DNA of 64,000 nucleotides, from NCBI RefSeq assembly GCF_003790525.1, contig NZ_CP033635.1; one strand, written 5' to 3'. Origin of the DNA: Escherichia coli. Its GTDB lineage: Bacteria; Pseudomonadota; Gammaproteobacteria; Enterobacterales; Enterobacteriaceae. The position numbers and the translations under genes were made by a program. The notes below the pieces were generated by a model, which did no database searches, was not told where the DNA came from, and saw only the letters and a program-made list of their open reading frames with translations. Of the stretch, positions 11,039-64,000 are shown one piece after another. Position 1 is the first letter of the stretch. Each line of letters starts with the position of its first letter.

Positions 11039-11088
11039 GAAGCCTGCTGACTTTCTCGCCGATCAAAAGGCATTTTGCTATTAAGGGA

Positions 11089-11117
11089 TTGACGAGGGCG
11101 TATCTGCGCAGTAAGAT
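11089..11117 (+). promoter_or_regulatory. sigma70 promoter of proK
   Basis: TTGACG (-35), 17-bp spacer, TAAGAT (-10), about 12 bp upstream of the mature tRNA 5' end. Confidence 0.6.
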
Positions 11118-11129
11118 GCGCCCCGCATT

Positions 11130-11206
<77 letters not shown>

Positions 11207-11213
11207 AATTCGA

Positions 11214-11241
11214 AAAGCCTGCTCAACGAGCAGGCTTTTTT
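11214..11241 (+). terminator. rho-independent terminator of proK
   Basis: stem AAAGCCTGCTC / GAGCAGGCTTT followed by T-run. Confidence 0.7.
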
Positions 11242-11289
11242 GCATCTGTAGCTCATGAGGAAGAGAACCCCCGGGGGCGGGGAGGTTCG

Positions 11290-11400
11290 ATTCGACGTAG
11301 GCCTGATAAGACGCGCCAGCGTCGCATCAGGCAAATGTACCGGCCCATTGTCGGATGCGGCGCGACCGCCTTATCCGATCTACACACCACACATTTCCCT
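11290..11400. repeat. REP/BIME-type extragenic palindromes
   Basis: GCCTGATAAGACGCGCCAGCGTCGCATCAGGC and TGTCGGATGCGGCGCGACCGCCTTATCCGATCTAC resemble the REP consensus. Confidence 0.6.
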
Positions 11401-11920
11401 GCCAAATTTGCGCCCCATATCTCACTATCCATTAACGGATTTGTGACAGAAACCATTGTCTTTTTTTATATTTGCTTAAATCTTTTTTTGCGTTACTTAT
11501 GGCTGGCGCTGGCATTTTCCGCTGTGCGTTTTAGCGTTCATGGTATTAATCGCTCAGATATCCACCTTTACCTCAGATTTTTTTCATTAAATGCATAAAA
11601 CTTAATCACCAAATGTTGCTAAATATTAAGCTGATTGTTCTGGTTGTGTTGGCGTAGCACAAATTTCTCTGCTGCAAATAGCTGTTTGAAGTTTTTTTAA
11701 TCTTTGTTTGTGGATTCTCACCGTTGGTGTAAATCCCGGTTGGCTGTATTGACGTTTTCACATTCTGTTGACAGATTGTAGGTCACGAGGGGCATTTTAT
11801 GGAGGATCCGCACTGTTACACTGATGTTAATTAGTACGGCATCCCCACCTCATAACGTTGACCCGACCGGGCAAAAAACAAAAAAGGTCAGGCAGCGACA
11901 ACCCACTGCAAAGGGTTAAA

Positions 11921-11949
11921 ACAACAAACATCACAATTGGAGCAGAATA
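11921..11949 (+). promoter_or_regulatory. dppA 5' leader C/A-rich element around the RBS (known GcvB sRNA target region)
   Basis: AAAACAACAAACATCACAATTGGAGCAGAATAATG; dppA is an established GcvB target; exact pairing site not verified here. Confidence 0.4.
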
Positions 11950-13557: not shown

Positions 13558-13707
13558 TTAAAAGCCATACCCGGTGGCGCTGTGCCTCTGCGTGCAGCGC
13601 CATCCGGCAGCAATACTTCATTCCCTGTCCCACAAGGGCGGGAATTGATTTGTGAGCAATACAGACACGCAGTTCCAGGCTGCGGGTCATTATAGAGAAT
13701 CCGGGTT

Positions 13708-14727
13708 ATGTTGCAGTTTATTCTCCGACGTTTGGGACTCGTCATCCCCACGTTTATCGGTATTACCCTTCTCACATTTGCCTTTGTCCACATGATCCCG
13801 GGCGATCCGGTGATGATCATGGCGGGCGAGCGTGGGATCTCCCCAGAGCGTCACGCGCAATTGCTGGCTGAACTCGGCTTAGATAAACCGATGTGGCAGC
13901 AGTATCTCCATTACATTTGGGGCGTAATGCACGGTGATTTAGGCATTTCCATGAAAAGCCGAATTCCGGTATGGGAAGAGTTCGTGCCGCGCTTTCAGGC
14001 TACGCTGGAACTTGGCGTCTGCGCGATGATTTTTGCGACGGCAGTCGGTATTCCGGTTGGTGTGCTGGCTGCGGTTAAACGTGGTTCCATTTTCGATCAC
14101 ACAGCGGTTGGCCTGGCGCTGACCGGCTACTCGATGCCAATTTTCTGGTGGGGCATGATGCTGATCATGCTGGTTTCGGTGCACTGGAACCTGACGCCTG
14201 TCTCCGGTCGTGTGAGCGACATGGTGTTCCTCGATGATTCCAATCCGTTAACCGGTTTTATGCTGATCGACACCGCCATCTGGGGTGAAGACGGTAACTT
14301 TATCGATGCCGTCGCCCATATGATCCTACCCGCCATTGTGCTGGGTACCATCCCGCTGGCGGTCATTGTGCGTATGACGCGCTCCTCGATGCTGGAAGTG
14401 CTGGGCGAAGATTATATCCGCACCGCGCGTGCCAAAGGTCTTACCCGGATGCGGGTGATTATCGTCCATGCGCTGCGTAACGCGATGCTGCCGGTGGTGA
14501 CCGTTATCGGCCTGCAGGTGGGAACATTGCTGGCGGGGGCGATTCTGACTGAAACCATCTTCTCGTGGCCCGGTCTGGGGCGTTGGTTGATTGACGCACT
14601 GCAACGCCGCGATTATCCGGTAGTGCAGGGCGGCGTATTGCTGGTGGCGACGATGATTATCCTCGTCAACCTGCTGGTCGATTTGCTGTACGGCGTGGTG
14701 AACCCGCGTATTCGTCATAAGAAGTAA
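13708..14727 (+). CDS. dppB: dipeptide ABC transporter permease
   Basis: 339-aa polytopic membrane protein; ABC permease EAA-like region; operon position. Confidence 0.95.
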   Translation: MLQFILRRLGLVIPTFIGITLLTFAFVHMIPGDPVMIMAGERGISPERHAQLLAELGLDKPMWQQYLHYIWGVMHGDLGISMKSRIPVWEEFVPRFQATLELGVCAMIFATAVGIPVGVLAAVKRGSIFDHTAVGLALTGYSMPIFWWGMMLIMLVSVHWNLTPVSGRVSDMVFLDDSNPLTGFMLIDTAIWGEDGNFIDAVAHMILPAIVLGTIPLAVIVRMTRSSMLEVLGEDYIRTARAKGLTRMRVIIVHALRNAMLPVVTVIGLQVGTLLAGAILTETIFSWPGLGRWLIDALQRRDYPVVQGGVLLVATMIILVNLLVDLLYGVVNPRIRHKK

Positions 14728-14736
14728 GGGGACATC

Positions 14737-15639
14737 ATGTCACAGGTTACTGAAAATAAAGTGATTAGCGCACCGGTGCCGATGACCCCGTTACAGGAGT
14801 TCTGGCACTATTTTAAACGCAACAAAGGCGCGGTTGTCGGGCTGGTTTACGTCGTCATCGTGCTGTTTATCGCGATCTTTGCCAACTGGATTGCACCCTA
14901 TAACCCGGCGGAACAGTTCCGCGATGCACTGCTCGCCCCGCCAGCCTGGCAGGAAGGCGGCAGCATGGCGCACTTGCTGGGCACTGATGACGTGGGGCGT
15001 GATGTGCTGTCGCGGCTGATGTACGGCGCGCGCTTGTCGCTGCTGGTTGGCTGTCTGGTAGTGGTGTTATCGCTGATTATGGGCGTTATTCTCGGCCTGA
15101 TCGCTGGTTACTTTGGCGGTCTGGTCGATAACATCATCATGCGCGTGGTCGATATCATGCTGGCGCTGCCAAGTCTACTGCTGGCACTGGTGCTGGTGGC
15201 GATTTTCGGCCCGTCGATTGGTAACGCCGCGCTGGCGCTAACCTTCGTTGCGCTGCCGCATTATGTGCGCTTAACCCGCGCCGCCGTGCTGGTGGAAGTT
15301 AACCGCGATTACGTCACCGCGTCTCGCGTGGCGGGTGCCGGGGCAATGCGCCAGATGTTTATTAACATCTTCCCGAACTGCCTTGCGCCGCTGATTGTTC
15401 AGGCGTCGCTCGGTTTCTCTAACGCTATTCTCGATATGGCCGCCCTTGGCTTCCTCGGCATGGGGGCGCAGCCGCCAACGCCGGAGTGGGGCACCATGCT
15501 CTCTGACGTGTTGCAGTTCGCGCAAAGCGCCTGGTGGGTCGTGACCTTCCCGGGTCTGGCGATCCTGCTGACGGTGCTGGCATTTAACCTGATGGGTGAC
15601 GGTCTGCGTGACGCGCTCGATCCCAAACTGAAGCAGTAA
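14737..15639 (+). CDS. dppC: dipeptide ABC transporter permease
   Basis: 300-aa membrane protein; operon position after dppB. Confidence 0.95.
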
Positions 15640-15649
15640 GAGGTTCGAG

Positions 15650-16633
15650 ATGGCGTTATTAAATGTAGATAAATTATCGGTGCATTTCGGCGACGAAAGC
15701 GCACCGTTCCGCGCCGTAGACCGCATCAGCTACAGCGTAAAACAGGGCGAAGTAGTCGGGATTGTGGGTGAGTCCGGCTCTGGTAAATCGGTCAGTTCGC
15801 TGGCGATTATGGGGCTGATTGATTATCCGGGCCGCGTAATGGCGGAAAAGCTGGAGTTTAACGGTCAGGATTTACAGCGTATCTCAGAAAAAGAGCGCCG
15901 CAACCTGGTGGGTGCCGAAGTGGCGATGATCTTCCAGGACCCGATGACCAGCCTTAACCCGTGCTACACCGTGGGTTTCCAGATTATGGAAGCGATTAAG
16001 GTGCATCAGGGCGGCAACAAAAGTACCCGCCGTCAGCGGGCGATTGACCTGCTGAATCAGGTCGGTATTCCCGATCCGGCATCGCGTCTGGATGTTTACC
16101 CGCATCAGCTTTCCGGCGGCATGAGCCAGCGCGTGATGATCGCCATGGCGATTGCCTGTCGGCCAAAACTGCTGATTGCCGATGAACCAACCACTGCGCT
16201 GGACGTGACCATTCAGGCGCAAATCATTGAACTACTGCTGGAGCTACAGCAGAAAGAGAACATGGCGCTGGTGTTAATTACCCATGACCTGGCGCTGGTG
16301 GCGGAAGCGGCACATAAAATCATCGTGATGTATGCAGGTCAGGTGGTGGAAACGGGCGATGCGCACGCCATCTTCCATGCGCCGCGTCACCCGTATACTC
16401 AGGCATTGCTGCGTGCGCTGCCGGAATTTGCTCAGGATAAAGAACGTCTGGCGTCGTTGCCAGGTGTTGTTCCCGGCAAGTATGACCGTCCGAACGGCTG
16501 CCTGCTTAACCCGCGCTGTCCCTACGCCACTGACAAATGCCGCGCTGAAGAACCGGCGCTGAATATGCTCGCTGACGGGCGTCAGTCCAAATGCCACTAC
16601 CCACTTGATGATGCCGGGAGGCCGACACTATGA
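15650..16633 (+). CDS. dppD: dipeptide ABC transporter ATP-binding protein
   Basis: 327 aa; Walker A GESGSGKS, signature LSGGMSQR, Walker [13 protein letters not shown]. Confidence 0.95.
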
Positions 16634-17634
16634 GTACGCAAGAGGCCACCTCGCAACAACCGCTGTTGCAGGCTATCGACCTGAAAAAACATTATCCGGT
16701 GAAGAAAGGTATGTTCGCGCCGGAACGTCTGGTGAAGGCGCTGGACGGCGTTTCGTTTAACCTTGAACGTGGCAAAACGCTGGCAGTAGTAGGTGAATCT
16801 GGCTGCGGTAAATCGACCCTCGGTCGGTTACTGACGATGATCGAAACGCCCACCGGTGGTGAGCTGTATTACCAGGGGCAGGATCTGCTCAAGCACGATC
16901 CGCAGGCGCAGAAGTTGCGTCGGCAGAAAATCCAGATCGTCTTTCAGAATCCCTATGGTTCGCTAAATCCGCGTAAAAAAGTTGGGCAAATTCTTGAAGA
17001 GCCGCTGCTTATTAATACCAGCTTAAGCAAAGATCAGCGTCGGGAAAAAGCCCTGTCGATGATGGCGAAAGTCGGCCTGAAAACCGAGCATTACGACCGC
17101 TATCCGCATATGTTCTCCGGCGGTCAGCGTCAGCGTATCGCCATTGCCCGTGGTCTGATGCTCGACCCGGATGTGGTGATTGCCGATGAGCCGGTTTCCG
17201 CGCTGGACGTCTCAGTGCGTGCGCAGGTGCTGAATCTGATGATGGATTTGCAGCAGGAGTTGGGGCTGTCTTATGTCTTTATCTCCCACGACCTGTCAGT
17301 GGTTGAGCACATTGCCGATGAAGTGATGGTGATGTACCTGGGCCGCTGCGTGGAGAAGGGAACGAAGGACCAAATCTTCAATAACCCGCGTCATCCGTAC
17401 ACTCAGGCGCTACTCTCCGCGACGCCGCGCCTGAACCCGGACGATCGCCGCGAGCGCATCAAGCTCACCGGTGAACTGCCAAGCCCGCTCAATCCACCGC
17501 CGGGTTGCGCCTTCAACGCCCGCTGTCGTCGGCGCTTCGGCCCCTGCACCCAGTTGCAGCCGCAGCTAAAAGACTACGGCGGTCAACTGGTAGCTTGTTT
17601 TGCTGTTGATCAGGATGAAAATCCGCAGCGTTAA
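16630..17634 (+). CDS. dppF: dipeptide ABC transporter ATP-binding protein
   Basis: 334 aa; Walker [10 protein letters not shown], signature FSGGQRQR; 4-bp overlap with dppD stop. Confidence 0.95.
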
Positions 17635-17663
17635 CTCACAAAACCGGGGCCGTGCGCTCCGGT

Positions 17664-18935
17664 TTACTCAATCAGCTTCAACAGTGGCGACAAGCATAGC
17701 AAAATGCCGTAAAGCAGAATCAGCCAGGCTTTAAATCCGCGAAGTTTTTCCAGTTGTGCGACTTTATAGATCAGGAAAAACGGAATGAGGCACGACACAA
17801 TGCCATATAACGGGCTTCCCAACTGAAAGAACACCAGCACCGATACACGAAACGAAACCCAAATCGTCAACGTAATGACGATAAAAGCGCAGATCGCCAG
17901 AGTCAGCACGCGTGAATTAATTTTCTTGGTATCAATAATTCGGCTTAACAGATTGAGAATAATGCCTTTAATGGCCTCGTGGAAACCGAGATAAATGCCA
18001 AAGAATGCGGTCAGTACGGCAAAGATATTCAGCACCGTAGAGGTGATATGAATGATATGCCCAGGGATCACCTGCGCGGCCAGTGCCAGTGCCGAGATAT
18101 TTTGTTCAAAGGCAGAAACGGCTTCTTCGTGGCTAATTGAGAAGGTAAACGAAAAGGCAAAAAACAGGATCACCGCGATGAGCGTGACATAACTAATTCG
18201 GTGGGTACGCAGCGCGAGCCGGGTTGCCAGTACTTTATCCGCTTCCCGTTTACGATAGGCAATATTCATTGGGTTAAGTACCTGAATAAATACCGCAGAA
18301 AAGAAGCAAAAGGGAATGGTAAGCAGGACATCGCGGAAAAAGACGGAGGCTTGCGGGAAGGCGGTTATATTGGCGAAATTCCAGTGCGGGATCATCGCAA
18401 AACCGAACACGACGATAATCCCTACTTTGACCACCACCATTGGCCCGGAAATCTTAAACAGTAATCGTTCACCACCAGACGCAATTGCCACCAGTACGGC
18501 GAAAATGGCGACTTTATAAAGTAGAGATTGTGAAAGATCGGCATCGGTTAAACCGAAGGTTTTCAGGTACGAGGCGCTGTCGAAAACCACGGAGAGAGAG
18601 TAGATAAAAATCCCGTGGATAATCATCAAAAAGTAGATAACCCCGAGGAAAATTCCCCAGTTCTTCCCCAGGTAATGACTGATAATATCGGTGTAGTCAT
18701 TACAGGAATCGCTTTCAGAAAGGGTTTTTAAATAAATGTCCTGCACTACCCAGGTGGCAGGATAAGCAATGATCGCTGCGGTAATAAATACCCAAATTCC
18801 CTTCAAGCCAATTTGTACTGGCATCAGCACGGTTCCGGCACCAATCGCCATGCCTATGCATAATAAAACCCAGCCGAAGTCGTAGCGTGTAAACGGCAAT
18901 TTCTGATCGTGTTTCGGTAGTGTGTTGTGCTGCAT
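17664..18935 (-). CDS. yhjV: HAAAP-family amino acid transporter-like inner membrane protein YhjV
   Basis: Track ORF 17664-18998 trimmed to [11 protein letters not shown] start (423 aa); polytopic membrane protein. Confidence 0.9.
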
Positions 18936-19296
18936 AAAGTCCTGTCCAGAAAGAAGTCGGCCTCGCAAAAATGAATAAACCCAGTTTCTCTTGCGCAACA
19001 GGTGGAGAAGTCGAATACGCAGTATGTAAAAAATGAGGCAACAGATTCACTGGGGAGGTCGCGAGGAGGCGCAATTCTACAAAATTGCGCATTTCACTAC
19101 CAGTCTGGAGTCAGCCCGGATATGAACTGCAACTATTGCAAATAAAGAAATTAAGCTGGAATGCATCACGCAATGAGGAAGATTGCCGGGTGCTGACGGT
19201 AAAAAGCAATCGTAGAATCAGCGGCAAGCCGGAAAGGTTCCGGTGAGGCGCAATGTTGCGGGGGCTTAATCCCTGGTGGCATTGGTTGCTGGAGAG

Positions 19297-19362
19297 AGAA
19301 AACCCCCGCATATTGCAGGTATGCACCTGACAACATCACGGGGGCTAATCTTGAACCTAGAC
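19297..19362 (-). ncRNA. rdl: Rdl antisense RNA, copy 1 (approximate boundaries)
   Basis: Antisense to the ldr leader; minus-strand transcript would begin GUCUAGGUUCAAGAUUAGCCCCCGUG and end in a GC hairpin plus U-run; position inferred from K-12 ldrD/rdlD organisation. Confidence 0.4.
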
Positions 19363-19410
19363 CACTCAAGAATAGCCGCGAAACGTTGTCATTACAACAC
19401 AGGCGGCTAT

Positions 19411-19518
19411 ATGACGCTCGCAGAACTGGGCATGGCCTTCTGGCATGATTTAGCGGCTCCGGTCATTGCTGGCATTCTTGCCAGCATGATCGTGAACTGG
19501 CTGAATAAGCGGAAGTAA
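19411..19518 (+). CDS. ldr: type I toxin Ldr, 35-aa membrane peptide (copy 1)
   Basis: MTLAELGMAFWHDLAAPVIAGILASMIVNWLNKRK; near-identical to K-12 LdrD. Confidence 0.9.
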   Translation: MTLAELGMAFWHDLAAPVIAGILASMIVNWLNKRK

Positions 19519-19568
19519 CGTGTCAGACGGGCGTCAGGCTGCCGTAATGGCAATTTGCGCCCGGACCA

Positions 19569-19599
19569 GGCCGCAGGGATAAAACTCTGCGGCCTTTTT
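19569..19599 (+). terminator. rho-independent terminator of ldr copy 1
   Basis: GGCCGCAG / CTGCGGCC stem followed by TTTTT. Confidence 0.7.
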
Positions 19600-19779
19600 C
19601 GTAAGAAAAATGCAACGGTTGCAAGCGGATAATATTCTGCGGAATGCGCAGCACAGAGTGAAGACGTGACGGATTCCGGAACAGAAAAACAGTCGTAGAA
19701 TCAGCGGCAAGCCGGAAAGGTTCCGGTGAGGCGCAATGTTGCGGGGGCTTTATCCCTGGTGGCATTGGTTGCTGGAGAG

Positions 19780-19845
19780 AGAAAACCCCCGCACGTTGCA
19801 GGTATGCACCTGACAACACCACGGGGGCTAATCTTGACTCTAGAC
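19780..19845 (-). ncRNA. rdl: Rdl antisense RNA, copy 2 (approximate boundaries)
   Basis: Minus strand would start GUCUAGAGUCAAGAUUAGCCCCCGUGGUG and end …GCGGGGGUUUUCU; candidate promoter TTGTAA-17-TATTCT upstream on the minus strand. Confidence 0.45.
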
Positions 19846-19893
19846 CACTCAAGAATAGCCGCGAAACGTTGTCATTACAACACAGGCGGCTAT

Positions 19894-20001
19894 ATGACGC
19901 TCGCAGAGCTGGGCATGGCCTTCTGGCATGATTTAGCGGCTCCGGTCATTGCTGGCATTCTTGCCAGCATGATCGTGAACTGGCTGAACAAGCGGAAGTA
20001 A
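19894..20001 (+). CDS. ldr: type I toxin Ldr, 35-aa membrane peptide (copy 2)
   Basis: Peptide identical to copy 1. Confidence 0.9.
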   Translation: MTLAELGMAFWHDLAAPVIAGILASMIVNWLNKRK

Positions 20002-20051
20002 CGTGTCAGACGGGCGTCAGGCTGCCGTAATGGCAATTTGCGCCCGGACCA

Positions 20052-20082
20052 GGCCGCAGGGATAAAACTCTGCGGCCTTTTT
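20052..20082 (+). terminator. rho-independent terminator of ldr copy 2
   Basis: same hairpin plus T-run as copy 1. Confidence 0.7.
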
Positions 20083-20263
20083 CGTAAGAAAAATGCAACG
20101 GTTGCAAGCGGATAATATTCTGCGGAATGCGCAGCACAGAGTGAAGAAGTGATGGATTTCGACGAACAAAAATGGCCGTAGAATCAGCGGCAAGCCGGAA
20201 GGGTTCCGGTGAGGCGCAATGTTGCGGGGGGCTTTATCCCTGGTGGCATTGGTTGCTGGAGAG

Positions 20264-20329
20264 AGAAAACCCCCGCACGTTGCAGGTATGCACCTGACAA
20301 CACCACGGGGGCTAATCTTGACTCTAGAC
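20264..20329 (-). ncRNA. rdl: Rdl antisense RNA, copy 3 (approximate boundaries)
   Basis: same position relative to the ldr ORF as in copy 2; sequence essentially identical. Confidence 0.45.
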
Positions 20330-20377
20330 CACTCAAGAATAGCCGCGAAACGTTGTCATTACAACACAGGCGGCTAT

Positions 20378-20485
20378 ATGACGCTCGCAGAGCTGGGCAT
20401 GGCCTTCTGGCATGATTTAGCGGCTCCGGTCATTGCTGGCATTCTTGCCAGTCTGATCGTGAACTGGCTGAACAAGCGGAAGTAA
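20378..20485 (+). CDS. ldr: type I toxin Ldr, 35-aa membrane peptide (copy 3, M26L variant)
   Basis: MTLAELGMAFWHDLAAPVIAGILASLIVNWLNKRK. Confidence 0.9.
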   Translation: MTLAELGMAFWHDLAAPVIAGILASLIVNWLNKRK

Positions 20486-20535
20486 CGTGTCAGACGGGCG
20501 TCAGGCTGCCGTAATGGCAATTTGCGCCCGGATCA

Positions 20536-20566
20536 GGCCGCAGGGATAAAACTCTGCGGCCTTTTT
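20536..20566 (+). terminator. rho-independent terminator of ldr copy 3
   Basis: GGCCGCAG / CTGCGGCC stem plus TTTTT. Confidence 0.7.
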
Positions 20567-20747
20567 CGTAAGAAAAATGCAACGGTTGCAAGCGGATAAT
20601 ATTCTGCGGAATGCGCAGCACAGAGTGAAGACGTGACGGATTCCGGAACAGAAAAACAGTCGTAGAATCAGTGGCAAGCCGGAAGGGTTCCGGTGAGGCG
20701 CAATGTTGCGGGGGGCTTAATCCCTGGTGGCATTGGTTGCTGGAGAG

Positions 20748-20813
20748 AGAAAACCCCCGCACGTTGCAGGTATGCACCTGACAACATCACGGGGGCTAAT
20801 CTTGAACCTTAAC
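20748..20813 (-). ncRNA. rdl: Rdl antisense RNA, copy 4 (approximate; 5' region diverged)
   Basis: Homologous position, but the predicted 5' end/promoter-proximal sequence is CTTGAACCTTAACAACTC instead of CTTGACTCTAGACCACTC. Confidence 0.3.
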
Positions 20814-20861
20814 AACTCAAGAATAGCCGCGAAACGTTGTCATTACAACAGAGGCGGCTAT

Positions 20862-20969
20862 ATGACGCTCGCAGAACTGGGCATGGCCTTCTGGCATGAT
20901 TTAGCGGCTCCGGTCATTGCTGGCATTCTTGCCAGTCTGATCGTGAACTCGCTGAATAAGCGGAAGTAA
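20862..20969 (+). CDS. ldr: type I toxin Ldr, 35-aa peptide (copy 4, M26L and W30S variant)
   Basis: MTLAELGMAFWHDLAAPVIAGILASLIVNSLNKRK. Confidence 0.85.
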   Translation: MTLAELGMAFWHDLAAPVIAGILASLIVNSLNKRK

Positions 20970-21019
20970 CGTGTCATGCGGGCGTCAGGCTGCCGTAATG
21001 GCAAGTTGCGCCCGGACCA

Positions 21020-21050
21020 GGCCGCAGGGGTGAAACTCTGCGGCCTTTTT
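21020..21050. terminator. terminator of ldr copy 4, 5 bp from the bcsG stop codon (possibly bidirectional)
   Basis: GGCCGCAG / CTGCGGCC stem plus TTTTT; bcsG stop codon at 21056-21058 on the opposite strand. Confidence 0.6.
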
Positions 21051-21055
21051 CGTTC

Positions 21056-22735
21056 TTATTGCGGGTAAGGCACCCAGTCGCCGCCGTTCAGGCGAACGTA
21101 CGGTTTATCCTGGTATTGAATAACTACTGCATTTGAGTTCTCGGAGACCGGTGCTGTTTGTGGCAACCCACTGGTGAGTTTTTTCCAGTCAACATTGTCT
21201 TCGGTGAAAATCTTGCCATCAAGAACCCGAACCACCAGATCGGAGATAGCCAGGAAGCTGCTCGGTTGGTCGATGACAATCGGTGCCCCCTGATGTGGTG
21301 CCTTCATGCCGAAGAATTTCACCCCAACGGGGACGTCTGTGATAGACGGGCTAGGGATATCACGTAGGCCAGATACCTGCATTCTGTCGCCCTTCAGCGC
21401 GCCGCCGTGTTCTGGCACCACGACCACCATCACTTTACGACCCGATTTCTCCAGTTCAGTAAAGAAGGCGTCCAGTTCATCAAAGAATTTCTGCGCCCGC
21501 GCTTTGTAATCCGCTGTTTTGCTGACGCCCGGATAATGGTTGCCGTCATGCAGTGGAAGCGTGTTGTAGAACGTGGCACTACGGCTGTTTTTATCTTTTT
21601 CGGTAACGTCCAGCCAGCGGTTAAGCACGGCGGTATCGTCATAAACCGGCGAACCATCAAAGCCCAGCAAAATAACCGGCAGATTTGTTTGATCCATCAA
21701 TTCGGTCTGCATGCCACCATTTTCGCGAACTTCTTTCAAAAAACCGCCGAACTGGCCGTTATGTCCCATCATCAGGTGCTGGGTAAAGCCCAGTTTCGAC
21801 AGGTTATCAAACAGATAGCAGTCATTATTTGCCGGTTGATACAGATTAGTGTGCGAAGTCTGCCCGCAGCTGGCGCGCAGTAAACGGATCGCCGCCGGGC
21901 CACTGTGGGAGGTGGCGGAGTTAAAGTTCTTGAACTCAATATCGAAATGCGACCACAGCGGATGCGACATCAACCCGGCGGCTTCAATATCCGACCAGGA
22001 AAGCGAACAGATATTAATCACCAGTAGTTCAAATGGCTGAGCATCAGCGGGCAGCGAAGACGGGAAGGTCGATTTACGTTTCGCCTCCGCGTTATAGAAA
22101 TTATTCAGCCAGGCGTTAAGGTTCGCCGTTGTTGGCGGTGCAGTTTGTGCGGGCATATCACCCACTACCGGTGCGCCACCCGTCGCCGCAACGGTTGCCG
22201 CTGCGTTACCACCCGTCGTTGTTACAGTGGTCGTCGGTTGACCGGCAGGCCACAAGGAGAAACTTGGTCCCGCCAGGGTAAGTACGTTCAGCCATAGCAG
22301 AATGGCAACCACAAAAACGGTAATGCGAATCCATTGTGACAGGAATAACCAGGCCACTAATAAAACAAAAATGGCCCCAATCATCTGCCAGTTAATAAAG
22401 CGTGTGACAAGGTCGATTAAATAATCGGTACTGAACCCCGCCACCTGCGAACCCTGGCTCATTATGCTTTCCGGGCCAGGCAACCAGGTGTCATGCCAGA
22501 ACAAAGCAAAGCCGATCGGCAGGGCAATCCAGTGGCGTAAGCGATGCAGGCTGTAGCGCGGAATGGGCATCAGCAGAAACGCGGCAAACACCAGATTGAG
22601 GAGCGGATGGAAGTTAAGATATCCTGCCCACAACAGGCCGAACTTAACCAGAAAATAGAAGTTCCAGCCGGAAAGGCCGCGCCAGTATTGCCAGAGGGAA
22701 GAAGGCATGGCGGTATTTTGCGTAAATTGAGTCAT
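21056..22735 (-). CDS. bcsG: cellulose phosphoethanolamine transferase
   Basis: 559-aa ORF; N-terminal TM helices, C-terminal alkaline-phosphatase-like domain; position next to bcsF/bcsE. Confidence 0.93.
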
Positions 22736-22923
22736 TTTTTGGTTGCCCTGGCTTTTTCCGTGCGGCGTAACGTCCCGGCCGGTTTAACATAACGAGGTTT
22801 AGCAAAGAACAAACGTAAGGTGTCGCGAATGCGTCGCAAAGAGTGCCGCGCCAGATAGCCCAGCGGGAAAAATATCAGTGCGCAAACGACAATAATTTCA
22901 ATGATATCGCTGATGGTCATCAT
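22732..22923 (-). CDS. bcsF: cellulose biosynthesis small membrane protein
   Basis: 63-aa single-TM ORF overlapping the bcsG start and bcsE stop by 4 bp each. Confidence 0.85.
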
Positions 22924-24491
22924 GATGAGCGCTCCACAGCATCATCTAACAGTCGCATTGGTTCTGGTATTCGTCGCCAGTGGCGACCATCGTGCTCGGC
23001 ATTGATGACCGGTTTAGAACTTTGCGTTAAAGGCAGCGGCATGCCCCATTGTTCTGGGGCAAGCAGGCGCATCTGCACCAGCTCGGCACTGATTTGATCA
23101 TCTTCAAACCAGACCATACGGTTTGAGAAAATGTCGCCAGTCGGCAATGGGAAAATATGATTCAACGCGGTATCCAGATCGTTAATCCGACAGAATGAGA
23201 GAAACAGCACCAGCCGATTACCGCCAATGGTCATGATATCGCCAGTGCGATTAGGGCGACATAGCGTCAGGGCTTGCTCAACGCGGATACCCGGTACCGG
23301 ACGTAGGGCAACCAGAACGCCTTTACCGTGGGCAGGTAATAGAGGGTTATTCATCATGTTGTTGACGGCATTACAGAACACATCCCACTTCTGGAAACCA
23401 CGCAGTTTGAGCGGCTGGGTCATTGACAGCAAGGTAGTGATATCTTCCGGCACATAGCGACTAAACTTCTGCCCTTGCACGCTTTCGATCATCGTCAGAC
23501 AGCGGGAGAGTGGGGCATTCCATGGGATAACCATATTTGCACCGCAGGCCAATAACAAACGTTCATCGGTGGCGCGCAGGCTAGCGGTATTTTCCCGTAC
23601 GAGGATTTTCATCGCACTACCGCGCTGGCGACGCAGAGTATGAATGCTGCGGGCCAGTGGCTCGATTTGCGCATTTTGTTGTAAAGAAAAGACCACCGTC
23701 GCCGCCTGAGCGGTACGGGCTTCATTAAACAGGACTTCGTTATTGTTGAACAGTTGCCAGTGTTCCGATAGCGGCGGCGCACCTTCAAGTACAGAAACAT
23801 TACTCAGAATGCGTTTTTCGTCGCTGCGTGGTTGGATTTCCGCCTCTTGGTGTTGAACTAATGTCCAGCAACCATTTTGTTGCTGAACGCTAAGCTGCTG
23901 ACGGGCGCTGACCCCTTTTTCGTTGCACCAGAAAGCAATATCCAGCAAATGTTGGTCGCCCTGAAAACGCAAACTGGCAAGACCAAAAAGTGAACGGTAT
24001 TCCTCAAGTAACAATGAAAATTGTTTATCGTTATTATTTCCGGAATTAATTACCAAAAGCGAACAATGGTTTAGCCGGCTCCATTTATTCATTTTATCCA
24101 ACCATGAGCGAAGCCGCTCGGCAGGAATGTTTTGCCATGCGTTATTTGCGCAAACAAGAATAAAAAGGTAATTATGGGGATCAATAGAACACTGCAAATC
24201 ACGGGCCAAATAGTATAGACCTTTTTCATGATTTAGCATTGAAAATAATGTTATTTTTCCCGGCCCTTGAGAATCATCTAATTGAAAGATTTTCGCTGGA
24301 TCGCTGTCCATGCTAATGACCGCGACGTGTGCGGTTTCAGCCTGGGATGCAATTGTTTGATTCGCCAGACTGATAGCATCTTCATGGCGATCGACGTTAA
24401 ACCACCAGACGCCGCCTGCTGGCATATGTCGCAGCTCATCCCATAATGATGAGATACCGATAGAGAATACAGGGTCCACAATGTCCCTCAT
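22920..24491 (-). CDS. bcsE: c-di-GMP-binding cellulose biosynthesis protein (GIL domain)
   Basis: 523-aa ORF recognised as BcsE; divergent from bcsR. Confidence 0.93.
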
Positions 24492-55661: not shown

Positions 55662-57059
55662 ATGAAAATGGTCTCACGTATTACCGCGATCGGCCTGGCT
55701 GGCGTCGCGATTTGCTATTTAGGGTTATCTGGTTATGTGTGGTACCACGATAATAAACGCAGTAAGCAGGCCGATGTTCAGGCATCTGCTGTCAGTGAAA
55801 ATAATCAGGTTTTAGGTTTTCTTCGCGAAAAAGGATGCGACTATTGCCATACGCCTTCGGCAGAATTACCCGCCTATTATTATATTCCTGGCGCGAAACA
55901 GTTGATGGATTACGACATTAAGCTTGGATATAAATCTTTTAACCTCGAGGCCGTGCGTGCGGCTCTGCTGGCTGATAAACCCGTTTCGCAAAGCGATCTG
56001 AATAAGATTGAATGGGTAATGCAGTATGAAACCATGCCACCAACGCGTTATACCGCGCTACACTGGGCGGGTAAGGTGAGTGATGAAGAGCGGGCGGAAA
56101 TACTCGCCTGGATTGCAAAACAACGCGCAGAATATTACGCCAGTAATGATACTGCTCCGGAGCATCGCAATGAACCGGTGCAGCCCATCCCGCAAAAACT
56201 GCCTACCGATGCGCAAAAAGTGGCGTTGGGCTTTGCGCTGTATCACGATCCCCGTTTATCGGCTGATAGCACCATTTCATGCGCTCATTGCCATGCGTTG
56301 AATGCGGGGGGCGTCGATGGCAGAAAAACATCGATTGGTGTTGGTGGCGCAGTTGGGCCGATTAACGCGCCGACGGTATTTAACTCAGTATTTAACGTTG
56401 AGCAGTTCTGGGATGGTCGTGCGGCAACATTGCAGGATCAGGCGGGTGGACCGCCGTTGAACCCGATTGAAATGGCGTCGAAATCCTGGGACGAAATTAT
56501 TGCTAAGCTGGAAAAAGATCCGCAGCTTAAAGCGCAGTTCCTCGAAGTCTATCCGCAAGGTTTCAGCGGTGAAAATATTACTGATGCCATTGCTGAATTT
56601 GAAAAAACATTAATTACGCCGGATTCCCCATTTGATAAATGGTTGCGTGGAGATGAGAATGCGCTGACGGCACAACAGAAAAAAGGCTATCAATTATTTA
56701 AAGATAATAAATGTGCAACTTGTCATGGTGGTATTATTCTCGGCGGACGTTCCTTCGAACCGTTGGGGCTGAAAAAAGACTTTAACTTTGGTGAAATTAC
56801 GGCGGCGGATATTGGTCGTATGAATGTGACTAAAGAAGAGCGCGATAAATTGCGTCAGAAAGTACCCGGTTTACGTAACGTTGCACTAACGGCACCGTAC
56901 TTCCATCGCGGTGATGTGCCGACGCTGGACGGGGCGGTGAAACTGATGTTGCGCTATCAGGTAGGCAAAGAGCTGCCGCAGGAGGATGTGGATGATATCG
57001 TAGCTTTCCTGCACAGTCTGAACGGGGTTTACACGCCGTATATGCAGGATAAACAATAA
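55662..57059 (+). CDS. yhjA: tri-haem cytochrome c peroxidase
   Basis: 465-aa ORF; three CxxCH haem motifs (CDYCH, CAHCH, CATCH); N-terminal TM anchor. Confidence 0.94.
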   Translation: MKMVSRITAIGLAGVAICYLGLSGYVWYHDNKRSKQADVQASAVSENNQVLGFLREKGCDYCHTPSAELPAYYYIPGAKQLMDYDIKLGYKSFNLEAVRAALLADKPVSQSDLNKIEWVMQYETMPPTRYTALHWAGKVSDEERAEILAWIAKQRAEYYASNDTAPEHRNEPVQPIPQKLPTDAQKVALGFALYHDPRLSADSTISCAHCHALNAGGVDGRKTSIGVGGAVGPINAPTVFNSVFNVEQFWDGRAATLQDQAGGPPLNPIEMASKSWDEIIAKLEKDPQLKAQFLEVYPQGFSGENITDAIAEFEKTLITPDSPFDKWLRGDENALTAQQKKGYQLFKDNKCATCHGGIILGGRSFEPLGLKKDFNFGEITAADIGRMNVTKEERDKLRQKVPGLRNVALTAPYFHRGDVPTLDGAVKLMLRYQVGKELPQEDVDDIVAFLHSLNGVYTPYMQDKQ

Positions 57060-57170
57060 TTAATTTAATCGCCCGAACAGGAATGTTTGGGCGATTTTTA
57101 TTACGATAATAAAGTCTGTTTTTAATATTATCATGTTAAATGTTTATATTATAAAAAGTCGTTTTTCTGC

Positions 57171-57190
57171 TTAGGATTTTGTTATTTAAA
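57171..57190 (+). promoter_or_regulatory. GAD box (GadE binding site) of the gadA promoter
   Basis: TTAGGATTTTGTTATTTAAA, identical to the 20-bp gad box as I recall it, about 80 bp upstream of the gadA ATG. Confidence 0.65.
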
Positions 57191-57269
57191 TTAAGCCTGT
57201 AATACCTTGCTTCCATTGCGGATAAATCCTACTTTTTTATTGCCTTCAAATAAATTTAAGGAGTTCGAA

Positions 57270-58670
57270 ATGGACCAGAAGCTGTTAACGGATTTCCGCT
57301 CAGAACTACTCGATTCACGTTTTGGCGCAAAGGCCATTTCTACTATCGCGGAGTCAAAACGATTTCCGCTGCACGAAATGCGAGATGATGTTGCATTTCA
57401 GATTATCAATGATGAATTATATCTTGATGGCAACGCTCGTCAGAACCTGGCCACTTTCTGCCAGACCTGGGACGACGAAAACGTCCATAAATTGATGGAT
57501 TTGTCGATCAATAAAAACTGGATCGACAAAGAAGAATATCCGCAATCTGCAGCCATCGACCTGCGTTGCGTAAACATGGTTGCCGATCTGTGGCATGCGC
57601 CTGCACCGAAAAATGGTCAGGCCGTTGGCACCAACACCATTGGTTCTTCCGAGGCCTGTATGCTCGGCGGGATGGCGATGAAATGGCGTTGGCGCAAGCG
57701 TATGGAAGCCGCAGGTAAGCCGACCAACAAACCAAACCTGGTGTGCGGTCCGGTACAAATCTGCTGGCATAAATTCGCCCGCTACTGGGATGTGGAGCTG
57801 CGTGAGATCCCTATGCGCCCCGGTCAGTTGTTTATGGACCCGAAACGCATGATTGAAGCCTGCGACGAAAACACCATCGGCGTGGTGCCGACTTTTGGCG
57901 TGACCTACACCGGTAACTATGAGTTCCCACAGCCGCTGCACGATGCGCTGGATAAATTCCAGGCCGACACCGGTATCGACATCGACATGCACATCGACGC
58001 TGCCAGCGGTGGCTTCCTGGCACCGTTCGTCGCCCCGGATATCGTCTGGGACTTCCGCCTGCCGCGTGTGAAATCGATCAGTGCTTCAGGCCATAAATTC
58101 GGTCTGGCTCCGCTGGGCTGCGGCTGGGTTATCTGGCGTGATGAAGAAGCGCTGCCGCAGGAACTGGTGTTCAACGTTGACTATCTGGGTGGTCAGATTG
58201 GGACTTTCGCCATCAACTTCTCCCGCCCGGCAGGTCAGGTGATTGCACAGTACTATGAATTCCTGCGCCTTGGCCGTGAAGGCTATACCAAAGTACAGAA
58301 CGCTTCCTACCAGGTTGCTGCCTATCTGGCGGATGAAATCGCCAAACTGGGGCCGTATGAGTTCATCTGTACCGGTCGCCCGGACGAAGGCATCCCGGCG
58401 GTTTGCTTCAAACTGAAAGATGGTGAAGACCCGGGATACACCCTCTACGACCTCTCTGAACGTCTGCGCCTGCGCGGCTGGCAGGTTCCGGCCTTCACTC
58501 TCGGCGGTGAAGCCACTGACATCGTGGTGATGCGCATTATGTGTCGTCGCGGCTTCGAAATGGACTTTGCTGAACTGTTGCTGGAAGACTACAAAGCCTC
58601 CCTGAAATATCTCAGCGATCACCCGAAACTGCAGGGTATTGCCCAGCAGAACAGCTTTAAACATACCTGA
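57270..58670 (+). CDS. gadA: glutamate decarboxylase A (PLP-dependent)
   Basis: Track ORF 57207-58670 trimmed to [19 protein letters not shown] start (466 aa), TAAGGAG RBS; called gadA rather than gadB from linkage to gadX/gadW. Confidence 0.95.
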
Positions 58671-58687
58671 TAACATAACGTTGTAAA

Positions 58688-58729
58688 AACCGAATGCCCA
58701 ACCTTTAAAAAACAGTTGGGCATTCGGTT
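58688..58729 (+). terminator. terminator hairpin downstream of gadA
   Basis: AACCGAATGCCCAAC / GTTGGGCATTCGGTT inverted repeat. Confidence 0.5.
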
Positions 58730-59029
58730 GCTTATTAATCGCAATAATATATTGGCTGTCTATTCATCGTGTTGATAAGATATATGTTATATGAATGTTT
58801 ATTCAATGTAACGGATATTCTTAATATCACTACAAGAGATTATTTGCTTACTATTAATTTCACTGCGTTCTTAAACACGCCTTTTGTATTATAAATCCAG
58901 TCATCCTGCCCGTAGATTATCATCCTGTTTTCCCGCGTCGTTTAAATTTATTTATCAATCAATTTGACTTAAGAGGGCGGCGTGCTACATTAATAAACAG
59001 TAATATGTTTATGTAATATTAAGTCAACT

Positions 59030-59854
59030 ATGCAACCACTACATGGTAATTGTCTAATTGCGTACGCAAGACATAAATATATTCTCACCATGGTTAATGG
59101 TGAATATCGCTATTTTAATGGCGGTGATCTGGTTTTTGCGGATGCAAGCCAAATTCAAGTGGATAAGTGTGTTGAGAATTTCGTATTAGTTTCAAGAGAC
59201 ACGCTTTCATTATTTCTCCCGATGCTCAAGGAGGAGGCATTAAAACTTCATGCACATAAAAAAGTTCCTTCATTACTCGTTCATCACTGTACCAGAGATA
59301 TTCCTGTTTTTCAGGAAGTTGCGCAACTATCGCAGAATAAGAATCTTCGCTATGCAGAAATGCTACGTAAAAGGGCATTAATCTTTGCGTTGTTATCTGT
59401 TTTTCTTGAGGATACGCAGTTTATACCGTTACTTCTGAACGTGTTGCAACCGAATATGCGAACACGAGTTTGTACGGTCATCAATAATAATATCGCCCAT
59501 GAGTGGACATTAGCCCGAATTGCTAGCGAATTGTTGATGAGTCCAAGCCTGTTAAAGAAAAAATTGCGCGAAGAAGGTACGTCATATTCACAGTTGCTTA
59601 CTGAGTGTAGGATGCAGCGTGCTTTACAACTTATTGTTATATATGGGGTTTCAATTAAGCGAGTTGCAGTATCCTGTGGATATCACAGCGTGTCGTATTT
59701 CATTTACGTTTTTCGAAATTATTATGGGATGACGCCCACAGAGTATCAGGAGCGATCGGCGCAGGAATTACCGAACTGTGGCCCGGCGGCAAGTATAGCT
59801 GCGCAAGGGAATTTTTACGGCACTGACCGTTCTGCGGAAGGAATAAGATTATAG
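59030..59854 (+). CDS. gadX: AraC-family acid-resistance regulator GadX
   Basis: 274-aa ORF; AT-rich gene; C-terminal AraC HTH; recognised as GadX. Confidence 0.94.
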   Translation: MQPLHGNCLIAYARHKYILTMVNGEYRYFNGGDLVFADASQIQVDKCVENFVLVSRDTLSLFLPMLKEEALKLHAHKKVPSLLVHHCTRDIPVFQEVAQLSQNKNLRYAEMLRKRALIFALLSVFLEDTQFIPLLLNVLQPNMRTRVCTVINNNIAHEWTLARIASELLMSPSLLKKKLREEGTSYSQLLTECRMQRALQLIVIYGVSIKRVAVSCGYHSVSYFIYVFRNYYGMTPTEYQERSAQELPNCGPAASIAAQGNFYGTDRSAEGIRL

Positions 59855-59870
59855 AGTTTTACTCAGACAT

Positions 59871-59976
59871 AAAAAAAACCCGGCATAGGGGACCGGGAAG
59901 AGGATAGTCTGCCGTCTCCAGACTAATAAACCGTTATAACACTCCCTGTTGGCACGGGAAACTTTGTGCTCTCAGT
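59871..59976 (-). ncRNA. gadY: GadY small RNA (antisense to the gadX 3' UTR)
   Basis: Minus strand reads ACTGAGAGCACAAAGTTTCCCGTGCCAACAGGGAGTG…CCCGGTCCCCTATGCCGGGTTTTTTTT, matching the GadY sequence as recalled, with terminal hairpin and U8. Confidence 0.8.
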
Positions 59977-60222
59977 AAGTTAAATATAACTTTTACTGGA
60001 AATAAGATCAGCCATTTTTTTATAAACATAAGCTATACGCTGTGCGAAAATATATTCGTGTTGCATTTACTTATTGTCAATTAACTGTTATGCAAAACTA
60101 CTTTGTGGATAAATTTTGGTCCTACCAAATCTGGCAGTTTTTGCGCTAAGAAACAGTCTGGCATCATTTCATTAGTATACTGAAATTGAAATAATCGCAG
60201 TAATGAAATATAAGGGATAGTC

Positions 60223-60951
60223 ATGACTCATGTCTGCTCGGTGATCCTCGTTCGTCGTTCATTCGATATTTATCATGAACAGCAAAAAATATCGTTGCAT
60301 AACGAGAGTATCCTGCTGCTGGATAAAAATTTGGCAGACGATTTTGCGTTTTGTTCACCGGATACGCGACGACTGGATATCGATGAGCTGACAGTTTGCC
60401 ATTACTTACAAAATATTCGTCAGATACCACGCAATTTAGGGTTACATAGCAAAGACCGTCTGTTAATTAACCAGTCACCCCCCATGCCGCTGGTGACGGC
60501 GATTTTTGATAGTTTCAATGACCCCCGGGTCAATTCGCCGATACTGAGCAAAATGCTCTACCTTTCCTGTTTATCAATGTTTTCTCATAAGAAAGAACTG
60601 ATCCCCTTACTTTTCAATAGTATCAGTACTGTTTCAGGAAAAGTTGAACGCCTTATTAGCTTTGATATCGCCAAACGTTGGTATCTGCGCGATATCGCAG
60701 AAAGAATGTATACCAGCGAGAGTCTCATCAAAAAAAAGTTGCAGGATGAAAATACCTGTTTCAGTAAAATATTACTCGCCTCCAGGATGTCGATGGCCAG
60801 ACGATTACTCGAGTTACGTCAAATTCCTCTGCATACTATTGCGGAAAAATGTGGATATAGCAGTACGTCGTACTTTATAAACACATTTCGACAATATTAT
60901 GGTGTAACGCCACATCAGTTTGCGCAACATTCGCCAGGTACCTTTTCCTGA
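60223..60951 (+). CDS. gadW: AraC-family acid-resistance regulator GadW
   Basis: 242-aa ORF, AT-rich, C-terminal AraC HTH; recognised as GadW. Confidence 0.94.
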   Translation: MTHVCSVILVRRSFDIYHEQQKISLHNESILLLDKNLADDFAFCSPDTRRLDIDELTVCHYLQNIRQIPRNLGLHSKDRLLINQSPPMPLVTAIFDSFNDPRVNSPILSKMLYLSCLSMFSHKKELIPLLFNSISTVSGKVERLISFDIAKRWYLRDIAERMYTSESLIKKKLQDENTCFSKILLASRMSMARRLLELRQIPLHTIAEKCGYSSTSYFINTFRQYYGVTPHQFAQHSPGTFS

Positions 60952-61313
60952 CATATTTTGCATTTGAATATTGGTCAGGATCTCACACCTGCTTCATGTG
61001 AAACTCTTCCCTGATGATTTCTGCCGGGCTACCGGCTAATTCTCTTTCGCAGTTTGCCAGGCGGTATAGGTATTTTCAGGAGGAAAAGACTCGGCATGTT
61101 TGGGATTATTAAGCTGACAATTCATACGATTACGGGAATGTGGGTCAGTATTGTGCTGTTCAAATTGATGACGAATGGCTGGAGTGGTTTCTACTTTCAG
61201 TGCTGTGTACTAAGCCTGGTATTCCTGACGGTTAGCTGGTTGTTGAGTGGTGAATGGTTAGCAGGAAAGAGTAAGGCTGAACCTTCACGTTCAACCTTAC
61301 TCTCATTTACACG

Positions 61314-64000
61314 TTACGCTTTTTTAAAGCGGGCAAAGAGATGTTCCACTACAACGAAAAAGACCGGAACGAAGTAAATTGCCAGCACTGTTGCGGCAAA
61401 CATCCCGCCCATCACGCCGGTACCTACCGCGTTTTGCGCGCCAGAACCGGCACCATGACTGATAACCAGCGGCAGCACGCCGAGAATAAAGGCCAGAGAG
61501 GTCATCAGGATTGGGCGTAAACGCATTCGCGCCGCTTCGATGATCGCCTCTATCGGCGTTTTCCCTTCTTTCTGCATCATCTCAACGGCAAATTCGACAA
61601 TCAGGATGGCGTTTTTGGCGGAAAGCCCGATGGTGGTCAGCAAACCAACCTGGAAGTAGACGTCATTACTTAAGCCGCGTAGATCGGTGGCCAGTAATGC
61701 GCCAACGACGCCTAACGGTACAACCAACATCACCGAGAACGGAATTGACCAGCTCTCATAAAGTGCGGCGAGGGCGAGGAACACCACGACCAGTGAAATG
61801 GCATACAGCGCGGGAGCCTGATTTGAGGATAACGCTTCCTGATACGACAGTCCGGTCCATGAGTAGCCGACGCCTGCCGGAAGTTTAGCGACCAGGTCTG
61901 CCATAAATTTCATGGCGTCACCGGTACTTTTACCGGCCGCCGCTTCACCTAAAATCTCCATTGACGGGATGCCGTTGTAGCGTTCCAGTCGCGGTGAACC
62001 ATAGGTCCATTCGGTAGACGAGTAGGCAGAAAGCGGTGCCATCGTGCCAGAGGCGTTGCGTACATACCATTGGTTGATGTTATCCGGCAACATACGGAAC
62101 GGCGTGCCTGCCTGGACATACACTTTTTTCACCCGCCCCTGGTTGAGGAAGTCGTTCACGTAGCTGCTGCCGAAGGCGGTGGAAATTGTCTGGTTGATAT
62201 CAGACAGCGCCACGCCCATAGCCTCGGCTTTCGCAGCGTTGACGTTCACTTTGAACATCGGCGTATCTTCCAGGCCGTTCGGGCGAACCCCGGTGACCTG
62301 ATTCGGTGATTGCGCTGCCAGTGATAACAGCTCGTTTCGCGCCTGGGTCAGTTTTTCGTGCCCCAGGTTGCCGTTGTCCAGCAGTTCCATATCAAAACCT
62401 GACGCGGTACCCAGTTCAGCCACCGCGGGTAAGTTGAACGGGAAGACGACGGCTTTATTGATACTGCTTAACGCAATCATTGCCCGCTGAATGATCGCGG
62501 TAACCGAGTTTTCCTCACCGACACGTTCAGACCACGGTTTGAGGCTGATAAACGCCAGACCGTTGTTTTGCCCCTGGCCGCTGAAGCCAAAGCCGCCAAC
62601 GGTAAACACCGACTGAACATTATCTTTCTCTTTAGTCAGATAATAATCCGTCACCTGTTGCAGCACTTTCGTGGTGTTAACCATGGTGGCACCGGAAGGT
62701 AACTGAGCGGTGGTCATAAATACCCCCTGATCCTCTTCTGGTAAGAAAGAGGTCGGCGTACGCAGGAACAGCACCGCCATCCCGGCGCAAATCAGCAGGT
62801 AGACCACCATGTAGCGACCGGTACAACGCAACAGCGAACGGGTGCTGTCGGTATAGTGCTGAGTTGATTTTTCAAACAGCGTGTTGAAGCGTGCGAACAG
62901 GGCGTTAGGTTTGTGACCGCCTTCCGGCGCGGCTTTCAGAATGGTGGCGCACAGGGCAGGGGTCAGGCTCATTGCCACAAATACTGAAAGCAGCATGGAG
63001 GAGATCAGCGTGATGGAGAACTGTCGGTAGATCTCCCCGGTTGCACCGCTCATAAAGGCCATCGGCATAAACACTGCGGAAAGAACAACGGCAATCCCGA
63101 CCAGCGCACGTTGGATCTGCCTCATCGATTTATGCGTCGCTTCCTTCGGCGGTAGCTTATCTTCCGCAATGACACGCTCGACGTTCTCCACCACCACGAT
63201 GGCGTCATCCACCAGTAACCCTATCGCCAGCACCATCCCGAACATAGTTAACGTGTTGATGGTGAAACCGACCGCCGACAAGATCGCAAACGTCCCGAGA
63301 ATAACCACCGGTACGGCAATCGTCGGGATGATTGTGGCGCGGAAATTCTGCAAAAACAGATACATGACCAGGAAGACGAGGATGATAGCCTCAACCAGCG
63401 TTTTGAAAACTTCCTGAATAGAAATTTTGATAAACGGTGTGGTGTCGTAAGGATAAACCGTCTTCAGGCTTGCAGGGAAATAAGCCGATAAACGGTTCAG
63501 CTCCTCTTTCACCGCTCGCGAGGTATCCAGGGCGTTTGCTCCGGTAGCCAGTTTGATGGCGATCCCGGCAGCAGGTTTGCCGTTATAGCGCGCCACGGTG
63601 GAATAATCTTCCGCCCCAAGTTCGACGCGGGCGACATCACGCAGCAGCACTTGCGAACCATCTTGCTGAACTTTCAACAGGATTTTGCCAAATTCTTCCG
63701 GTGTTTGCAGACGCGTCTGCACAATGATCGAGGCGTTCAGTTGCTGGTCTGCCGCCTGTGGCATGCCACCCAGTTGACCACCGGAAATCTGGTTGTTTTG
63801 CACCTTAATCTGGGAAATAACATCGGAAGGTACCAGGTTATATTTATTGAGTTTTTGCGGGTCCAGCCAGATACGCATGGCGTACTCGGAACCAAAGAGC
63901 TGTACGCTACCAACGCCCGCGGTACGGCTTAGCGGGTCTTTGATATTAGACGCTACATAGTCCGCGATATCGTACTGGTTGAGGCTGCCGTTATCAGAAA
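61314..64000 (-). CDS. mdtF: RND multidrug efflux permease MdtF (3' portion; N-terminus lies beyond the window end)
   Basis: Reading frame open to the window edge; the 854 aa visible from the first in-window Met align to the AcrB/MdtF C-terminal region; adjacency to gadW. Confidence 0.93.

Follow-up and report, generated by a model that had tools for sequence, protein, structure and literature searches.

The gadY small RNA gene forms an island of conservation between gadX and gadW in Escherichia coli

Is the short minus-strand element at positions 59871–59976, between the regulator genes gadX and gadW, the small RNA gene gadY itself or a mere lookalike, and what does its sequence conservation tell us about the RNA? 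We addressed these questions in a 64-kb stretch of Escherichia coli DNA (64,000 nt; hereafter the window). A first-pass annotation, made from the letters alone, had recognised gadY at this place on the minus strand and a 20-bp gad box upstream of gadA, and had seen in them an intact acid-resistance regulatory circuit within an AT-rich island typical of H-NS silencing.

Identity of the gadY gene

The first-pass annotation had named an Rfam scan and an alignment with K-12 gadY as the ways to check its assignment, and both bear it out. When the whole 64-kb window was scanned against all 4227 Rfam families (cmscan, Rfam 15), the GadY family RF00122 matched at 59866–59979 (−) over model positions 1–114 of 114, scoring 150 bits against a gathering score of 45 (E = 8.3e-32) and agreeing with the consensus at every position. 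The ncRNA gadY of K-12 MG1655 (b4452, 3664864–3664969; formerly called IS183) is identical to window positions 59976..59871 at 106 of 106 nucleotides, and the two ends of the proposed element coincide exactly with the boundaries of the K-12 annotation. A longer alignment with K-12 MG1655, spanning window positions 59840–59996 (−), likewise revealed no difference at any aligned base. The gadY gene is thus placed at 59871..59976 on the minus strand by both the full-length RF00122 match and the identity to b4452. Its minus-strand read is ACUGAGAGCACAAAGUUUCCCGUGCCAACAGGGAGUGUUAUAACGGUUUAUUAGUCUGGAGACGGCAGACUAUCCUCUUCCCGGUCCCCUAUGCCGGGUUUUUUUU, with the 5′ end at the A at 59976 and the 3′ end in the run of eight U residues at 59878–59871.

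The GC-rich hairpin followed by U8 with which the RNA had been said to end is also present. Terminator scan, minimum-free-energy (MFE) fold and Rfam consensus structure all place the intrinsic terminator hairpin of GadY at 59879..59897 (−), where CCCGGU-CCCCUAU-GCCGGG forms six pairs, five of them G–C, around a 7-nt loop; the U tract UUUUUUUU follows on its 3′ side at 59878–59871, and the scan finds this Rho-independent terminator on the minus strand only. The predicted secondary structure of GadY as a whole rests on the Rfam model. Its MFE, −28.6 kcal/mol, is indistinguishable from that of shuffled sequence (z = −0.73), and stability alone would not identify GadY. In the Rfam stems, 97% of cells are paired across six distinct Escherichia sequences; 25 of the 28 pairs are invariant and a two-sided change occurs in none, a count that is uninformative in sequences so close to invariant. 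As the sequence hardly varies, there is no covariation signal either way. Membership of the GadY family rests instead on sequence identity, covariance-model score and synteny, and with these we regard it as almost certain that the element at 59871–59976 is E. coli gadY itself, an Hfq-binding sRNA of about 105 nt, rather than something that merely resembles it.

Gene neighbourhood and promoter of gadY

Gene order was read from the open reading frames (ORFs) and from the annotation of E. coli SMS-3-5, which shares a 5.7-kb stretch with the window without a difference: positions 56800–62500 are 100% identical in SMS-3-5 and in at least 14 other strains. On the plus strand lie ccp (55662–57059), gadA (57270..58670; glutamate decarboxylase A, 466 aa, of which 465 are identical to K-12 GadA), gadX (59030..59854; AraC-family activator, 257 of 274 aa identical to K-12) and gadW (60223..60951; AraC-family regulator, 235 of 242 aa identical), gadX and gadW being supported by both the ORFs and the SMS-3-5 annotation and gadA by the latter; mdtF follows on the minus strand from 61314 onward and is cut by the window end. 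The order ccp–gadA–gadX–(gadY antisense)–gadW–mdtF is common to the window and K-12. gadY begins 17 nt beyond the gadX stop codon and is antisense to the gadX 3′ UTR, that is, to the gadX–gadW intercistronic RNA. Because it is encoded opposite this UTR, GadY is perfectly complementary to it.

Of the regulatory circuit that had been called intact, the part in the window holds up: gadA, gadX and gadW are all full length. The circuit as a whole exceeds the window: gadE, mdtE, hdeD, hdeAB and yhiD follow after position 64000, and gadBC has a separate place in the genome. In SMS-3-5, the closest sequenced relative, yhiD–hdeBA–hdeD–gadE–mdtEF is annotated just beyond the point that matches the window end. 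Still further out in SMS-3-5 and outside the window (NC_010498.1, 3870640–3876548), a chu/shu heme-uptake cluster lies directly next to yhiD, where the acid fitness island reaches its far end; this insertion is known from some non-K-12 E. coli lineages.

The AT-richness noted for gadX and gadW is confirmed by base composition. The GC content is 41.2% in gadX, 41.7% in gadW and 35.9% in the spacer between them, and the block 58671–60951 stands at 39.0% against 51.3% for the whole window, a value within the bottom 0.15% for stretches of its length; the minimum among all such stretches belongs to the one starting at 58651, which overlaps the block almost wholly. gadA and mdtF are not AT-rich (54% GC each). 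Repression of gad genes by H-NS is documented (PMC2887963, PMC3937726, PMC3708157), H-NS sites have been described at gadA (PMC2887963), and under some conditions gadY is included in extended protein-occupancy domains (PMC11230228).

Upstream of gadY, positions −1 to −84 are the same as in K-12. Read from the sequence, a putative −10 hexamer, TATATT, lies at 59983..59988 (−), −12 to −7 from the annotated 5′ end. A scan with the sigma-70 consensus found no full −35/−10 pair for gadY, nor was a good −35 seen by eye; the lack of a canonical sigma-70 promoter is expected because the gadY promoter is RpoS- and activator-dependent, and is not positive evidence for it. A pattern search predicted a GadX/GadW binding site with two mismatches at 59996..60015 (−), or −20 to −39 of gadY, although with five matches observed at up to three mismatches against 2.6 expected, such hits are weak evidence when taken alone.

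The GAD box and the gadA promoter

The 20-bp gad box placed upstream of gadA proved to be exact, unique and the same as in K-12. The sequence TTAGGATTTTGTTATTTAAA at 57171..57190 (+) equals the published GAD box (PMC4918353), and it is the sole match in the 64-kb window even with three mismatches allowed, where shuffles lead one to expect 0. Its distance to the gadA ATG is that of K-12, so that it shares both the 20 bp and the spacing to the gadA start codon with the box known from the gadA and gadBC promoters. The box is bound by the RcsB/GadE heterodimer and not by GadE alone, and is required for gadA activation; its centre lies 63 bp ahead of the transcription start, and 16 bp separate it from the −35 element downstream (PMC2887963). 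Applied to the window sequence, this geometry would put the −35 element of gadA at TTGCTT, 57207..57212 (+), 16 bp downstream of the box, and the transcription start probably about 27 nt before the ATG. A further predicted GadX/GadW motif match with two mismatches, again weak evidence alone, lies upstream of the box at 57112..57131 (+); GadX/GadW boxes at the gadA promoter appear in the model of PMC2887963. Near the GAD box, which is itself unchanged, a single substitution sets the window apart from K-12: position 57204 carries A in place of G, in the gap that separates the box from the inferred −35. Two more substitutions relative to K-12, at 57067 and 57081, fall in or near a stem–loop downstream of ccp. 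Both gadY and the GAD box were thus correctly identified from the outset; they are already known and in themselves add nothing new to the biology.

Conservation of gadY

Of 5426 complete E. coli genomes, 5412 carry gadY at 99% identity or more, in every case on the chromosome. None of 30 RefSeq records sampled carried an annotation for it ("features under the match": none in 30 of 30). Recognising the gene is useful for annotation, as the RefSeq/PGAP records of most E. coli genomes omit it. Beyond E. coli, searching one genome from each of 100,044 species (298 Gb) for an exact 17-mer returned 33 loci, six of them in Escherichia: E. albertii, E. whittamii, Escherichia sp. E1V33, Escherichia sp. 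MOD1-EC7003 and two species representatives labelled E. coli. All six hold a full-length Rfam GadY (117–150 bits) lying antisense between gadX and gadW homologues. The remaining 27 loci, from unrelated phyla, were set aside as chance occurrences of the 17-mer: about this number is expected in 298 Gb, and the nine that we tested as controls gave no Rfam GadY match.

Within E. coli, the invariance of gadY stands out against its surroundings. The window and K-12 are 93.9% identical in gadX (50 of 825 nt and 17 of 274 aa differ) and 91.9% in the gadA–gadX spacer, and they show zero differences from 59800 to 60060, a block that takes in gadY and its promoter. Relative to the window, gadX is at least 99% identical in 1421 E. 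coli genomes and 90–95% identical in 3795, so that gadX occurs in two allele classes about 6% apart within the species; gadY is at least 99% identical across both.

The same contrast extends to the other species. Compared with E. albertii, E. whittamii and Escherichia sp. E1V33, nucleotide identity is 92–98% in gadY and 85–92% in its promoter (−1 to −60), against 74–76% in gadX, 73–77% in gadW, 66–67% in the rest of the gadX–gadW spacer and 25–44% in the 16 nt that separate the gadX stop from the 3′ end of gadY. At the protein level, GadX and GadW of other Escherichia species are only about 74–82% identical to those of the window, and even strain E69, labelled E. coli, reaches just 74% for GadX, whereas GadA is 97–100% identical in all loci that contain it and MdtF 97–99% where present. 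(For mdtF, tblastn was used; pairwise MAFFT was unreliable, giving 22–27% for loci L012 and L018 and 71% for L010 against 97–99% at the protein level.) The seven gadY sequences, from the window and the six loci, are 95% identical per column. Thus, gadY is a sharp conservation island between diverging gadX and gadW. In Escherichia sp. MOD1-EC7003, only the C-terminal 83 codons of gadX (aa 192–274) are detectable, at 1526–1774 of the locus, beside a gadY that is 100% identical (1788–1901); this looks like a partial gadX deletion that spared gadY and gadW.

The antisense mechanism alone demands no such conservation, because an RNA transcribed from the strand opposite its target is complementary to it by construction. 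As complementarity would hold for any sequence and gadY is nevertheless nearly frozen, the pattern suggests that sequence-specific properties of the RNA (how it binds proteins, is processed or acts on trans targets) are under constraint, or else that overlapping DNA sites are. One possible explanation, to which we give somewhat less than even chances, is that selection acts on functions of GadY that depend on its sequence and go beyond gadX–gadW pairing, for example the binding of Hfq or CsrA, action on targets in trans or recognition by nucleases.

The 260-bp conserved block might instead be kept mainly for roles of the plus strand or of the DNA, with the minus-strand RNA secondary. Candidates for such roles are the gadX 3′ UTR, gadX–gadW processing signals, and the GadX/GadW, ArcA and AppY sites of the divergent gadY and gadW promoters. 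Conservation does reach into the gadY promoter, where positions −1 to −60 are 85–100% identical across species, where the GadX/GadW motif match lies at −20 to −39 and where several regulators are reported to bind (PMC10057817, PMC11230228). However, identity peaks within transcribed gadY (92–100%), falls to 25–81% over the 16 nt from the gadX stop to the start of the conserved RNA at its 3′ end and is 66–92% in the remaining spacer. This peak, and the drop outside it, mean that the boundaries of the conserved block track the minus-strand RNA and its promoter and not the whole gadX 3′ UTR. Moreover, GadY has been detected experimentally in K-12 as an abundant Hfq-bound RNA (PMC11300174, PMC11230228). 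We therefore consider it unlikely that the block is kept chiefly for the plus strand or for its DNA sites.

Sequence-specific roles of GadY, if they are real, would extend known work, in which trans roles have already been proposed, and would not constitute a new kind of system. An invariant gadY beside fast-diverging gadX and gadW is in this sense a small evolutionary observation, one that fits sequence-dependent roles beyond antisense pairing. gadY may also act as a recombination boundary between fast-evolving regulator alleles.

Expected action of GadY in this strain

By analogy with K-12, where the experiments concern an identical sequence, this strain would be expected to express GadY, to bind it to Hfq, to process it with RNase III and to have protein bound at the GAD box. 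The RNA shows no difference from K-12 gadY (RF00122), and its strand, both ends, terminator, promoter region and neighbouring genes agree with K-12 as well. On this basis, GadY would be transcribed from the minus strand of the gadX–gadW spacer, from 59976 down to the hairpin and U8 at 59871. It is reported (Opdyke 2004) to occur as 5′-processed isoforms of about 105, 90 and 59 nt. The RNA would accumulate in stationary phase from its RpoS-dependent promoter. In published work, gadY is induced via RpoS as cells enter stationary phase and not by low pH, and its promoter is also controlled by GadX, GadW, ArcA and AppY (PMC11230228, PMC10057817).

GadY would then pair with the gadX–gadW transcript, and RNase III, along with one or more further nucleases, would cut the duplex. 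GadY-dependent processing and stabilisation of the gadX–gadW mRNA is reported to involve RNase III (PMC3937726, PMC3919570, PMC11230228); the enzyme takes part, though cleavage also occurs in its absence (PMC3919570, PMC11230228). Cleavage would yield stabler gadX and gadW mRNAs and more GadX and GadW, which in turn would activate gadA, gadBC, gadE and gadY itself. Separately, the RcsB/GadE heterodimer would activate the gadA promoter from the GAD box at 57171–57190. In trans, GadY is reported to titrate CsrA, affecting pgaABCD and biofilm formation (PMC10057817), and to target sdiA (PMC11300174).

In part this design recalls lambda OOP, acting on cII–O, and the antitoxins Sok, IstR and OrzO, which like GadY are encoded opposite their targets, pair with them extensively or perfectly and lead to cutting by RNase III (PMC3919570). 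GadY differs from lambda OOP and the type I antitoxins in its positive outcome, in that processed gadX and gadW mRNAs accumulate, and in that it binds Hfq and has the reported trans roles in CsrA titration and at sdiA (PMC10057817, PMC11300174).

Could gadY be present in this strain and yet be silent or without function? The AT-rich region is reported to be silenced under some conditions (PMC11230228), but K-12, which expresses the RNA, has the very same promoter and RNA sequence, and the target genes gadX and gadW are intact; a silent or functionless gadY is accordingly very improbable. That the hairpin at 59879–59897 is instead a plus-strand terminator of gadX, with its likeness to GadY incidental, we reject as scarcely credible: it does stand 25 nt downstream of the gadX stop codon, but the plus strand has A8 before the hairpin and AAGAGGAUAG after it, with no U tract, the terminator scan calls it on the minus strand only, and a 114-position Rfam match at E = 8e-32 is not incidental. 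The missing U tract on the plus strand, by which the hairpin is not a classical gadX terminator, agrees with the reported co-transcription of gadX and gadW as a gadXW mRNA (PMC3937726, PMC11230228).

Other RNA elements in the window and its relatives

Far from gadY, between bcsG and yhjV (19202–21053), the window carries four tandem 484-bp units of the Ldr/Rdl type I toxin–antitoxin family (TRF: 3.8 copies, 96% matches). Each unit comprises a 35-aa Ldr ORF and an rdlD RNA scoring 86–88 bits. The rdlD matches from Rfam lie on the minus strand at 19297–19362, 19780–19845, 20264–20329 and 20748–20813, and the ldr ORFs start on the plus strand at 19411, 19894, 20378 and 20862. SMS-3-5 has five units at this locus against four in the window, and K-12 presumably has a single ldrD–rdlD, so the copy number of Ldr/Rdl varies between close relatives. 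Over the dpp–bcs flank (9470–22986), the window is 99.8% identical to SMS-3-5 (NC_010498.1), with one ldr/rdl unit fewer, differences that rule out its being the SMS-3-5 record itself.

In the same flank, a tRNA at 11130–11203 (+), annotated as tRNA-Pro in SMS-3-5, is followed at 11300–11380 (−) by an Rfam match to naRNA4/CssrE (70.5 bits against a gathering score of 59.5), which is ordinary for the locus; naRNA4 is a family of nucleoid-associated RNAs derived from REP elements. Finally, two of the Escherichia loci gave a 100-bit match to the ES205 sRNA (RF02754), at 6009–6080 of L012 and 4081–4152 of L018. Both matches lie upstream of the mdtF segment that was aligned, in acid fitness island sequence past the end of the window.
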